Positions 30,615 to 32,811 of a stretch of DNA of 36,473 nt are shown piece by piece. Made by a program: the position numbers and the translations under genes. The stretch is from a virus (lineage: Duplodnaviria; Heunggongvirae; Uroviricota; Caudoviricetes). The stretch's first letter is position 1, and the number at the start of each line of letters is the position of its first letter. Where the stretch lies: IMG/VR virus record IMGVR_UViG_3300045988_146535; one strand, given 5' to 3'. The notes beneath the pieces were generated by a model. That model worked only from the letters and a program-made list of their open reading frames with translations, made no database searches and was not told the origin of the DNA.

Positions 30615-30704
30615 ACAATATGTACCTCCGGTATACATATTACATGATTGAAATGAACCTTCAAGATACTTGTACCTTAACGGTACAAGGGTTTTAATTT
30701 TGTT
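30615..30704. promoter_or_regulatory. Immunity-region operator/promoter (divergent pR / pRM-like)
   Basis: Perfect palindrome CTTGTACC-ttaac-GGTACAAG (30669-30689) and imperfect ATGTACC-tcc-GGTATACAT (30620-30638); candidate -10 TTTAAT at 30693-30698 gives a near-leaderless cI. Confidence 0.5.
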
Positions 30705-31379
30705 ATGAAAACAATCCATGACATCCGGCGGTCTAACGCCAGAAAACTGAGAGATGGTGTTGGCGGGAATTCTTCCTTTGCCACTATGATTGATCGCGAG
30801 CCAACCCAGACCAGCAGGTTTATGGGAGATGGTGCTACTAAAAATATCGGTGACAGCATGGCACGACACATCGAAAAATGTTTCGACCTGCCTGTCGGAT
30901 GGCTCGATCAAGAACACCAGACAACGAACATCACAAAAAAACCTGATGTTTCAATCACTAATAAACAAATCACATTAGTCCCTGTCATATCATGGGTACA
31001 GGCCGGAGCATGGAAAGAAGTTGGATATTCTGAGGTTGATTTGAGCACAGCAGAAACGTATCCCTGCCCTGTCCCCTGTGGGGAAATGACTTATATCTTG
31101 CGGGTGATAGGTGATTCAATGATTGATGAGTACCGCCCGGGAGACATGATTTTTGTCGATCCTGAAGTACCTGCCTGCCACGGTGACGACGTTATTGCAT
31201 TGATGCACGATACAGGTGAAACCACCTTCAAAAGGTTGATAGAAGATGGGACACAGCGTTATCTCAAAGCGTTAAACCCAAACTGGCCTGAGCCTTACAT
31301 TAAGATCAACGGTAATTGCTCTATAATTGGTACAGTGATTTTCTCAGGAAAACCAAGAAGATACAAAATCAAAGCCTAA
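30705..31379 (+). CDS. cI-like repressor (HTH plus LexA/S24-type autocleavage domain)
   Basis: 224 aa; C-terminal VIGDSM...GD...V and K-containing S24 peptidase-like region. Confidence 0.8.
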   Translation: MKTIHDIRRSNARKLRDGVGGNSSFATMIDREPTQTSRFMGDGATKNIGDSMARHIEKCFDLPVGWLDQEHQTTNITKKPDVSITNKQITLVPVISWVQAGAWKEVGYSEVDLSTAETYPCPVPCGEMTYILRVIGDSMIDEYRPGDMIFVDPEVPACHGDDVIALMHDTGETTFKRLIEDGTQRYLKALNPNWPEPYIKINGNCSIIGTVIFSGKPRRYKIKA

Positions 31380-31390
31380 TCAATGTTTAT

Positions 31391-31415
31391 GAACCTGCTT
31401 CGGCAGGTTTTTTTA
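31391..31415 (+). terminator. Intrinsic terminator after cI
   Basis: AACCTGC-ttcg-GCAGGTT followed by TTTTTTT. Confidence 0.6.
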
Positions 31416-31418
31416 TAC

Positions 31419-31452
31419 TTGACAATGTACCTTTGAGATACATAATGTACCC
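31419..31452 (+). promoter_or_regulatory. pL-like early-left promoter with flanking operator repeats
   Basis: TTGACA (31419-31424), 16-bp spacer, CATAAT (31441-31446); 8-bp direct repeat AATGTACC at 31424-31431 and 31444-31451 shares the TGTACC half-site of the cI/cro operators. Confidence 0.5.
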
Positions 31453-31572
31453 AAGAGAAACAACAAACAGGCAGGTCGTCCACGAAGTAGCCCCCTGGAG
31501 CATATGAAGTCCAGGATGATTCGTTGAGTCATGTTGTGCCACTAGGCACTCATGTTAAAGCAGGTGTATGAA

Positions 31573-31848
31573 ATGAAAGTCCAGATTTTAAACAATAACT
31601 GTGAAGTCGTTTGGTCATACGACATAGCCGCCCCTGTAGATCAGAGCGGCGATAGCTGGACCAATGGGAAACATCAGATTATGGCTGGAGTTGTGTTCTC
31701 TTTACGCCGTGCTTTGGAACAGGCTGAAGTATTTCCATCAGACCCTGAATGGAAATGGCCTTTTTCTATTTGTCCAAATTCGGAGAGCACATTTCAGAAA
31801 ATTGGTCAGAAAGTCGCACTCGAAGAGCATCAGCCAACTGTTTCCTGA
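31573..31848 (+). CDS. Hypothetical protein, first gene of the early-left transcript
   Basis: 91 aa from the internal ATG with an AGGTG ribosome-binding site (ORF 31552-31848). Confidence 0.4.
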   Translation: MKVQILNNNCEVVWSYDIAAPVDQSGDSWTNGKHQIMAGVVFSLRRALEQAEVFPSDPEWKWPFSICPNSESTFQKIGQKVALEEHQPTVS

Positions 31849-32011
31849 TTTTTTCAGGTAACTCGTCGGCATCGCAGAAACAACAACGCTCGATCATGTT
31901 GAAAGCCGATTCGTAGAACTGTTTCTGCTGAGTGTCGCTGAGACAGGAAAAGAGCGACGTTACGATGATTTTATTAATTGCATTATCAAGTTCTTTTTCA
32001 TCAAAAGTCAT
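31766..32011 (-). CDS. Hypothetical protein (antisense to the early-left transcript)
   Basis: 81 aa; AGGAAA ribosome-binding site 6 nt upstream of the ATG; Cys pairs (CCFC); overlaps the 3' end of the plus-strand ORF. Confidence 0.35.
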   Translation of the reverse strand: MTFDEKELDNAINKIIVTSLFSCLSDTQQKQFYESAFNMIERCCFCDADELPEKIRKQLADALRVRLSDQFSEMCSPNLDK

Positions 32012-32265
32012 TTGATTTTCCTTTTATGTATACGGGCTTAAAAGGATACCACCGAGCCTGAAGTGGTGAAAAGACAGGCACATAACAGCTAAGTATTTTC
32101 AACCAAAGAGAATCCTTAGCGTTGTGGTGAATGCGGCTCAGCGCACGCGGGTTAAGGTTGAGGCTGACAGTCGACCTTCTGTGGATACCCACCCGCCTGG
32201 TGTGCAACCTTCGCCAGGCACCGGGAGGCACCCGGCACCACAACTTTATGCTGTGTGTAGTCCTG

Positions 32266-32310
32266 GCGGTACCAGCTTGTACCCTTGCTTCCGGCTGGTA
32301 CCGTCCTTTT
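32266..32310 (+). terminator. Candidate intrinsic terminator inside the structured early-left leader
   Basis: CGGTACCAGC (32266-32275) pairs with GCTGGTACCG (32293-32302), followed by tccTTTTT. Confidence 0.35.
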
Positions 32311-32448
32311 TACAAAACAGAGAAGAGCATCACCGGACGACGGGCTCATAACCCAATCCATCCGGGCGGCTGCCACCGCAGGTGTTCTTCTCTGTTTTGT
32401 GGAGAAACTAATCGGCCTTGCAGGGTCGATATGATGAGGAGCAGCAAA

Positions 32449-32811
32449 ATGGCTAGCGAACGCAGTACTGATGTGCAGGCATTTATCGGGGAGCTGGACG
32501 GCGGCGTATTTGAAACCAAAATCGGCGCAGTTCTCAGTGAAGTCGCTTCCGGTGTGATGAACACGAAAACCAAAGGTAAGGTCTCACTCAACCTGGAAAT
32601 CGAACCATTTGATGAGAACCGTGTGAAAATCAAACACAAACTCTCATATGTTCGCCCGACTAACCGCGGGAAAATTTCCGAAGAAGACACCACCGAAACG
32701 CCGATGTATGTCAATCGCGGTGGTCGCCTGACTATTCTGCAGGAAGACCAGGGACAGTTACTGACTCTTGCCGGTGAACCTGACGGAAAACTCCGCGCAG
32801 CAGGTCGTTAA
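32449..32811 (+). CDS. YfdP-like protein
   Basis: 120 aa from MASERS; the upstream part of ORF 32131-32811 looks non-coding; size and order match the K-12 CPS-53 yfdPQRST cluster as I recall it. Confidence 0.5.
   Translation: MASERSTDVQAFIGELDGGVFETKIGAVLSEVASGVMNTKTKGKVSLNLEIEPFDENRVKIKHKLSYVRPTNRGKISEEDTTETPMYVNRGGRLTILQEDQGQLLTLAGEPDGKLRAAGR

Follow-up and report, generated by a model that had tools for sequence, protein, structure and literature searches.

Two convergent, overlapping small ORFs beside the pL-like promoter of an SfV-like prophage: evidence for selection on both frames and for a probable accessory cassette

Two small open reading frames (ORFs) that face each other and overlap at their 3′ ends lie beside the immunity region of IMGVR_UViG_3300045988_146535, a 36,473-nucleotide (nt) Caudoviricetes record from IMG/VR, and raise the question of whether such an arrangement holds two genes or one and, if two, whether they are coupled. 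This record, referred to at its full length as the window, is an SfV-like lambdoid prophage with 99.1% identity to Shigella phage SfV over 31380-32450. An initial annotation had described a 91-amino-acid (aa) ORF overlapping an oppositely oriented 81-aa ORF by about 80 nt, and had proposed either mutual regulation or that only one of the two is real. We confirm the convergent layout, in which the overlap measures 83 nt:

31573-31848, plus strand: the plus gene, 91 aa (SfV orf33 family, phrog_3195, WP_021563905.1)
32011-31766, minus strand: the minus gene, or 'cargo' gene, 81 aa (phrog_3311)
31766-31848, both strands: dual-coding 3′ overlap of the plus and minus genes, 83 nt, read from the sequence

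In our reading, the pair is probably an indivisible two-gene accessory cassette of Enterobacterales lambdoid prophages, composed of an early pL gene and an antisense-embedded cargo gene that are coupled by convergent transcription. Sequence comparison brings out clearly the properties on which this reading is built: purifying selection on both genes, a conserved geometry, a shared upstream element and an exclusive association of the two families.

ORFs of this size are common by chance in the window, where dozens are listed; thus, the ORFs by themselves are no proof of genes, and comparative data must decide. Both frames are open in at least 12 diverged lineages (Escherichia, Salmonella, Klebsiella, Yersinia and metagenomes), even where protein identity falls to 25-45%, and the plus ORF is accompanied by the minus ORF in 165 of the 165 loci fetched. 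The lone locus with the minus ORF only is a remnant left by a deletion, joined to part of a tail gene. The distance from start codon to start codon is exactly 439 nt in eight closer lineages and in two of four distant pairs, and is 436 and 430 nt in the other two; the Yersinia and Klebsiella copies also have the 439-nt geometry. In all four distant pairs, whose proteins are 25-45% identical, the genes converge and overlap within a span of 430-439 nt. Six lineages that share 66-77% nucleotide identity have both ORFs intact and no insertions or deletions over the 439 nt, while their flanks are unrelated. Stop positions vary, such that the ORF overlap spans 74-176 nt across lineages.

The pattern of substitution changes along the pair as the coding frame changes. 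In nt 0-191, counted from the plus ATG, the mean pairwise difference at plus codon positions 1, 2 and 3 is 0.26, 0.16 and 0.46 (chi-square P = 4e-5), and the ratio of nonsynonymous to synonymous polymorphism (pN/pS) is 0.34 in the plus frame, the lowest of the six frames. In nt 258-438, variation instead peaks at minus position 3 (0.54-0.59, compared to 0.17-0.18 at minus position 2; chi-square P = 5e-9), with a minus-frame pN/pS of 0.28 over nt 259-438. Between these segments, in nt 192-257, codon periodicity is gone (chi-square P = 0.83) and overall variability dips; dual coding predicts such a loss of periodicity. A stretch of 18 nt at 31811-31828 encodes plus residues K80-V-A-L-E-E85 and minus residues A62-L-R-V-R-L67 on the same nucleotides, and VALEE of the plus protein and ALRxRL of the minus protein, in each case the best-conserved motif, show no variation in alignments A1 and A3. 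The Shine-Dalgarno (SD) sequence, start codon and upstream element of the minus ORF are likewise invariant across lineages. The check that the initial annotation had proposed, conservation and codon-level selection in relatives, thus comes out in favour of both frames, and the comparisons argue with high confidence that the plus and minus ORFs are both genuine genes under purifying selection.

The plus ORF begins at ATG 31573 and ends with the stop codon at 31848; an in-frame upstream ATG at 31552 gives the 98-aa form that corresponds to SfV orf33. Its product matches phrog_3195, a family annotated 'unknown function', over residues 1-98 of 98 (E = 6.4e-70). The MKVQI start is conserved, a GAGG-type SD is present in other lineages, and the conserved core ends at VALEE(H/P), around residue 86. 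A 122-aa extended plus ORF, found in several lineages, was considered as coding sequence and rejected: substitutions in the extension track the minus frame and the plus-frame pN/pS there is 1.41, and therefore the 122-aa form is an unselected open frame. Its gene lies at the position of N in lambda; an arginine-rich motif is absent from the plus protein, which gave no family match. Both proteins have few homologues, all of them in Enterobacterales prophages; the plus profile found 17 clusters among 1.84 billion representatives, and a protein-pattern scan of genome contigs yielded no confirmed relative. In some distant plus homologues, the N terminus bears an additional module, either a C4 zinc finger of the ClpX type (PF06689, with an above-cut-off score of 30.3 bits) or the 'MEFKDLP' module (L172 152-773; P0064, P0065, P0066).

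The minus ORF runs from ATG 32011 to its stop at 31766, and the good ribosome-binding site noted earlier is indeed a strong SD, AAAAGGAAAA at 32025-32016, about 5 nt ahead of the ATG. The protein matches phrog_3311, also annotated 'unknown function', over residues 1-81 of 81 (E = 1.2e-55), and its AlphaFold2 (AF2) model consists of three helices (residues 5-22, 26-44 and 53-75), at low confidence. The 'Cys pairs' to which attention had been drawn do not hold up as a feature of the family, as C43, C44 and C46 are invariant in close lineages only and distant homologues keep a single Cys; the four conserved metal ligands that would mark a zinc-binding small protein are absent from the minus protein. 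We also found no Pfam or PHROG link between the minus protein and SieB. Annotation of the pair is one-sided: the SfV record and the Prokaryotic Genome Annotation Pipeline (PGAP) call the plus ORF only, while PHROGs has a family for each ORF, and the annotation of the two intact copies that were inspected lists the plus gene alone. The cassette is present in 551 of 5426 complete E. coli genomes (∼10%). In E. coli, the cassette region is often struck by insertion sequence (IS) elements, with IS66/ISEc8 just downstream in one locus (L002 3300-5521) and IS3 inside the minus gene in another (L004 2945-4158), as well as by deletions (L003), and many copies lie in decaying prophages.

Conservation of the ∼65 nt before the start codon of the minus ORF exceeds that of the proteins. 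In one homologue, the protein is only 33% identical while the upstream element is ∼95% identical. The element and its parts are as follows:

32019-32082, minus strand: sieB-type upstream element of the minus gene, conserved in all cassette lineages
32079-32075 with 32060-32056 (S1) and 32067-32063 with 32052-32048 (S2), minus strand: core TGTGCCTGTCTTTTCACCACTTCAGGCTCGGTGGT of the element, GCCTG/CAGGC and ACCAC/GTGGT, able to form a pseudoknot-like pairing
32046-32039 with 32026-32019, minus strand: hairpin P3 of the element, whose 3′ arm abuts or overlaps the SD (32025-32016)

Over 14 instances, 97.9% of the core cells are paired in S1 and S2, and three changes affect both sides of a pairing (GCCTT/AAGGC and ACCGC/GCGGT, which come from a single lineage, and GCCGGG/CCCGGC, from Yersinia); the covariation support is modest because the core is nearly invariant. 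Covariation in P3 is extensive, with 20 types of 5′ arm, each with a matching 3′ arm, and 3-4 Watson-Crick pair types at three positions; in a permutation test, 0 of 10,000 permutations was as good. The element belongs to no Rfam family, and as a test for an operator, no second copy of ACCAC-N10-GTGGT was found in the window beyond chance. Within the element, GGTATCCT (GGTATnCT) fits an extended -10 motif, and a start site there would leave the 5′ arm of P3 outside the mRNA. Judged from its sequence, the element is a candidate promoter, 5′ leader or antisense-RNA module.

The element is not restricted to the minus family. A blastn search with 55 nt of it matched 153 phage records, including P22, lambda, HK620 and ST104, in which a ∼33-35-nt core match of ∼94% identity directly precedes the sieB promoter or the gene itself. 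In P22 the annotated promoter of sieB and its mapped RNA start follow directly 3′ of the core, and in lambda the core lies upstream of sieB. The element also precedes ymfI of e14 in E. coli K-12, SfII_36, a second Yersinia pair and ORFs in Rahnella and E. ruysiae, and among sampled IMG/VR contigs it stands ahead of small ORFs from at least 28 unrelated families. When a 16-base element pattern was run on genome contigs, 2 of 120 matches were real (those in Rahnella and E. ruysiae), the rest being mostly chance. Because the element is shared by sieB, ymfI and many cargo ORFs, it identifies a hypervariable cargo slot in which the minus gene is one of the occupants. Moreover, SfII, SfIV and PhiR29 have the same flanks as the window with other genes in between, and the presence of unlike genes between common flanks identifies the cassette as a replaceable accessory module. 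Thus, the earlier idea of a slot for exclusion genes is retained for an accessory slot whose cargo shares its upstream element with lambda and P22 sieB, and is abandoned in its rex-like form. Element copies were located at L013 5426-5497, L296 2501-2560, L297 2501-2560, L299 1506-1574, L167 3266-3335, L207 738-792 and L224 ∼569-645. A Yersinia prophage (L167 3336-3826 and 4001-4439) carries tandem convergent pairs, YmfJ-like/77-aa followed by plus/minus, with an own copy of the element ahead of each cargo gene.

Most cargo genes face a convergent pL-strand ORF that overlaps or abuts them, some of which may be spurious. A hidden Markov model of the plus domain matched 36 partner ORFs, and all 36 lie opposite minus-family cargo; minus-family cargo without the plus domain occurs only as the deletion remnant and an IS3-disrupted copy. 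The ClpX-type zinc finger and 'MEFKDLP' modules are found in addition on other C-terminal domains that face other cargo. Similarly, a second cargo family, MPDKHLITVGEL..., has one C-terminal partner domain, with or without the zinc finger. By their sequences, then, the pL-side proteins are modular, and the C-terminal domain goes with the cargo. This tracking suggests, but does not prove, a specific interaction between the C-terminal domain of the pL-side protein and the cargo, here between the plus and minus proteins. The N-terminal modules hint that these proteins form a modular, adaptor-like family with a possible link to ClpXP.

The control sequences to the left of the pair bear on when each gene might be expressed. 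The features concerned, and the structured stretch to the right of the pair, are:

30705-31379, plus strand: cI-type repressor (LexA/S24 family, e14 YmfK-like; Pfam Peptidase_S24, 1.5e-26; cI in SfV; ymfK / LexA family in PGAP)
31391-31417, plus strand: intrinsic terminator of cI, also placed at 31391-31410, from a terminator scan (8-bp stem followed by a T run), also annotated as a terminator in SfV
31419-31446, plus strand: pL-like promoter TTGACA-16-CATAAT, from a promoter scan (11/12 matches)
31419-31451, plus strand: the pL-like promoter together with ATGTACC operator half-sites at 31425 and 31445
31466-31519, plus strand: pL leader element, AACAGGCAGG..CCACGAAGTAGCC and a hairpin with the loop GCATAYGAAG
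32099-32314, plus strand: STnc100-like structured non-coding stretch, ending in a terminator-like hairpin at ∼32265-32312

The plus ORF is the first ORF past cI, the cI terminator and the pL-like promoter site, in agreement with its earlier description as the first gene of the early-left transcript. The ATGTACC half-site recurs at 30620, in the cI/cro operator region; seven occurrences were found in the window compared to 2.9 expected, and three of these fall at the cI/cro and pL control regions. The TTGACA-16-CATAAT site with its ATGTACC half-sites lies where pL/oL is expected, and we consider it a putative pL/oL on the basis of sequence. The cassette site, downstream of the cI terminator and the operator-flanked pL-like promoter, corresponds to the position of N and sieB in lambda. 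The pL leader element is kept in five lineages whose repressors and promoters are otherwise unrelated, and the arms of its hairpin vary between lineages yet stay complementary through compensatory changes. A possible role is that of a nut/put-like signal for antitermination or processing in phages without an N homologue.

The stretch at 32099-32314 matches Rfam RF02076 (STnc100) with 41.4 bits (E = 2.5e-7), below the gathering score of 47. At the gathering threshold, Rfam gave no match in the whole window, and a permissive search gave none over either ORF or the upstream element, only this sub-threshold STnc100 match further right. The hairpin at ∼32265-32312 on the plus strand (-31.1 kcal/mol, z -5.0) has a 13-bp stem followed by CUUUUU, and from these features is a candidate tL1-like terminator at which the immediate-early pL RNA would end. 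This GC-rich stretch recurs in conserved form in many phages, Stx2c-converting phages and ST64B (78% identity) among them. A mechanically called 226-aa ORF at 32131-32811 (plus strand) crosses it, and its first ∼100 codons are an artefact; the genuine gene is the YfdP-like orf32 at 32449-32811 (plus strand). Spurious 'hypothetical proteins' over the stretch appear in SfII and in some PGAP records. SfV carries an annotation of a 'putative rho-independent terminator' at window positions 31999-32031 (plus strand), which we examined and rejected: it is a weak hairpin composed almost entirely of A-T pairs, lies over the minus-gene start codon and SD, and is probably a misannotation.

Prophage genes embedded antisense and facing a convergent early partner are a known kind of arrangement, and the closest precedent is sieB of P22 and lambda. 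Work of Ranade and Poteete from 1993 reportedly found that P22 sieB is expressed from the prophage, and that its cognate protein Esc and the antisense RNA sas counteract sieB during the phage's own lytic growth. As with the minus gene, sieB is antisense in the pL operon and convergent with the first pL gene (gene 24 in P22, N in lambda), and the same core of ∼35 nt with a following hairpin stands immediately upstream. The two differ in several respects, however. SieB is a membrane protein of ∼160-190 aa, whereas the minus protein is an 81-aa predicted soluble helical protein with no similarity to it; esc uses an in-frame internal start, while the candidate antidote here is a separate convergent gene; and the genes abut in P22 and lambda but overlap by 83 nt here. 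In addition, the hairpin abuts the SD in the window, so that the mapped P22 promoter position has no counterpart.

The e14 genes ymfJ and ymfI share more of the layout: a YmfK-like repressor, a first pL-side gene that overlaps a convergent small gene by 63 nt (L013 5498-6085) and the same upstream element ahead of ymfI, of which ∼80 nt are nearly identical to the window. They have no detectable sequence similarity to the plus and minus proteins, and ymfI-type cargo occurs with several partner types whereas the minus family occurs with the plus domain only. ymfJ, the pL-side partner in e14, is induced late in the SOS response and its protein has been detected (PMC11002266), and ymfI-ymfJ is among the convergent excludons identified from RNA-seq with ExcludonFinder (PMC12288877). 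The pair is a tractable K-12 model of the architecture.

Excludons and convergent switches such as pR/pL of coliphage 186 and OOP/cII of lambda resemble the cassette in that convergent units have overlapping 3′ regions. In such switches, a strong regulated promoter is expected to silence a weak opposing one and to yield complementary RNA. Here, in contrast, both partners code for conserved proteins and share a dual-coding overlap, and the transcripts are predicted ones. Lambdoid morons and lysogenic-conversion cargo offer a further parallel, as small accessory genes set against an operon in a hypervariable slot, with unrelated substitutes in close relatives; they differ from the cassette in that its cargo has a convergent partner specific to it and a structured upstream element in common with other cargo, and its own promoter and terminator are putative.

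These comparisons suggest a model for expression of the cassette, for which we have moderate confidence regarding the timing of transcription of each gene and the antisense coupling. In a lysogen, pL would be repressed and the minus gene likely transcribed on its own, against pL. Upon loss of the repressor, by induction or in infection, pL would come on. Because the plus gene is the only sense ORF before ∼32310 on the repressor-controlled pL transcript, the plus protein would then be made. Without antitermination, the pL RNA is predicted to be ∼860 nt, to carry plus mRNA only and to be antisense to the entire minus gene, its SD and its upstream element. Since the genes are convergent and overlap, the immediate-early pL RNA would be plus mRNA and full-length minus antisense at once, and given the 83-nt coding overlap, any plus and minus mRNAs must overlap. 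De-repression of pL may thereby switch expression from minus to plus through transcriptional interference (collision) and RNA pairing, by an excludon or sieB/sas logic. By analogy with SieB and Esc, the plus protein is probably the cognate early partner of the cargo and perhaps its neutraliser; an effector-plus-antidote biochemistry of the cassette is speculative and we hold it with low confidence. The layout, with pL at 31419-31446, the hairpin at ∼32265-32312 and the minus gene between them, is compatible with expression in the lysogen and antisense shut-off in lytic growth. Thus, mutual regulation, the other half of the choice posed at the outset, is the best inference from the architecture and from the analogy to P22 sieB and e14 ymfJ/ymfI.

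Several observations weigh against this model of a coupled cassette. A consensus scan revealed no convincing sigma-70 promoter for the minus gene; the mapped sieB promoter of P22 lies 3′ of the conserved core, where the window leaves no room between element and SD. Folding of the element does not discriminate the strand: the pL-sense form is slightly more stable on average, and the small number of G-U pairs in S1/S2 points to the cargo sense. Searches of Pfam, NCBIfam, PADLOC and PDB sequences assigned neither protein to a defence, toxin, antitoxin or other informative family, and the AF2 models are of low confidence (predicted local distance difference test scores of 63-65). N and sieB merely abut in lambda and P22 and other pairs in the slot overlap by 4-63 nt, and overlap is perhaps not required. 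Finally, exclusive co-inheritance is in part a trivial outcome of physical overlap.

Some of these points are best accommodated by an alternative in which the two genes are unrelated, uncoupled neighbours, whose 3′ overlap arose from genome compaction and which are inherited together since recombination cannot split them. The variation of the overlap from 74 to 176 nt between lineages would fit such an origin, as would the short or absent overlap of other pairs in the slot (4-63 nt or none, with lambda N and sieB abutting) and the several partner types of ymfI-type cargo. Neighbours of this kind would not be expected to hold 439 nt from start to start in most lineages (436 and 430 nt in two distant pairs) with no insertion or deletion in the six aligned, nor to place the most conserved motifs of both proteins on the same 18 nt. 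Furthermore, the N-terminal modules of the partner shuffle while its cargo-facing domain never switches partner, and convergent transcription over a whole gene is not neutral when pL fires. We therefore regard compaction alone as unlikely, although it is the alternative with the best standing.

Less probable still is an addiction module resembling a toxin-antitoxin system, in which the plus gene would encode a Kil-like early protein toxic to the host and the lysogen-expressed minus protein would neutralise its leaky expression. In favour of this are the small size and strict co-inheritance of the pair, its carriage on a mobile element, the opposite expression logic of the two genes and the presence of kil-type genes nearby in related prophages (KilR in the Salmonella prophage L005). 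However, neither protein matches a toxin or antitoxin family in Pfam, NCBIfam or PADLOC, and no recognisable toxin or antitoxin fold is present; classical type II pairs form co-directional, co-transcribed bicistronic operons, whereas the plus and minus genes are convergent; and degraded prophages retain one gene with no obvious consequence (the minus gene only in L003, the plus gene and a truncated minus gene in L004).

A two-component exclusion system like rexAB was suggested by the initial annotation, which placed the pair in the rex-like position downstream of cI. In lambda, rexAB lies between cI and pL and is co-transcribed with cI from pRM. The cassette is a two-gene accessory unit beside the immunity region, where prophages often have exclusion genes, but it stands outside the rexAB position because the cI terminator and the pL-like promoter precede it and preclude co-transcription with cI; its genes are convergent rather than tandem, neither ORF resembles RexA or RexB or matches any Pfam, NCBIfam or PADLOC family above noise, and there is no membrane segment and no PADLOC match. 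In a related Salmonella prophage (L005 2552-3706), a gene for a 384-aa HSDR_N protein lies directly 3′ of the repressor gene and co-directional with it, and the cassette comes after; that gene occupies the true rex-like position and is a candidate prophage defence gene. A rex-like system is thus very improbable for the plus and minus genes. The same can be said of the view that one ORF is a chance antisense frame kept open by the composition of the coding strand: PGAP and SfV annotate the plus ORF only, antisense ORFs are frequent in the window and the 122-aa plus extension is itself such an unselected frame, but 'only one real' is rejected because each ORF has its own signature of purifying selection (third-position bias and low pN/pS in its own frame, in the non-overlapping part) and both are conserved in every lineage, belong to PHROG families and persist to 25-45% identity, with no variation in the SD, the start codon or the upstream element of the minus gene.

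The coupled cassette therefore remains our preferred reading. A broader proposal, which we offer as doubtful at this stage, is that it represents a class of two-part prophage modules that occupy a hypervariable slot beside pL in lambdoid phages. Each would be composed of a small lysogen-expressed cargo protein (of at least 28 unrelated families), an early protein encoded from pL that neutralises the cargo through a cargo-specific C-terminal domain and may also bear shared N-terminal modules such as the ClpX-type zinc finger, and a common structured control element (the pseudoknot-like core and the covarying hairpin at the ribosome-binding site) through which pL transcription shuts the cargo off. 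Our literature search found no paper on a pL-side cargo slot; the plus/minus family, its strict pairing and the element that marks many cargo genes appear to be undescribed in the literature searched.

An 81-aa gene that is under selection is thus absent from the annotation of SfV and from the RefSeq annotation of ∼10% of complete E. coli genomes. The pair is also a clean natural example of antisense dual coding, in which the invariant motifs of two proteins share the same 18 nucleotides. The plus/minus pair, e14 ymfJ/ymfI and many small ORFs join sieB in one architectural class, and the shared upstream element can be used as a marker for finding cargo genes. If the two-part module class is real, it would generalise the sieB/esc/sas principle of exclusion with self-immunity; and if the reading of a cargo with its cognate partner is true, the slot would be a compact reservoir of exclusion or host-modulating functions with built-in self-immunity.

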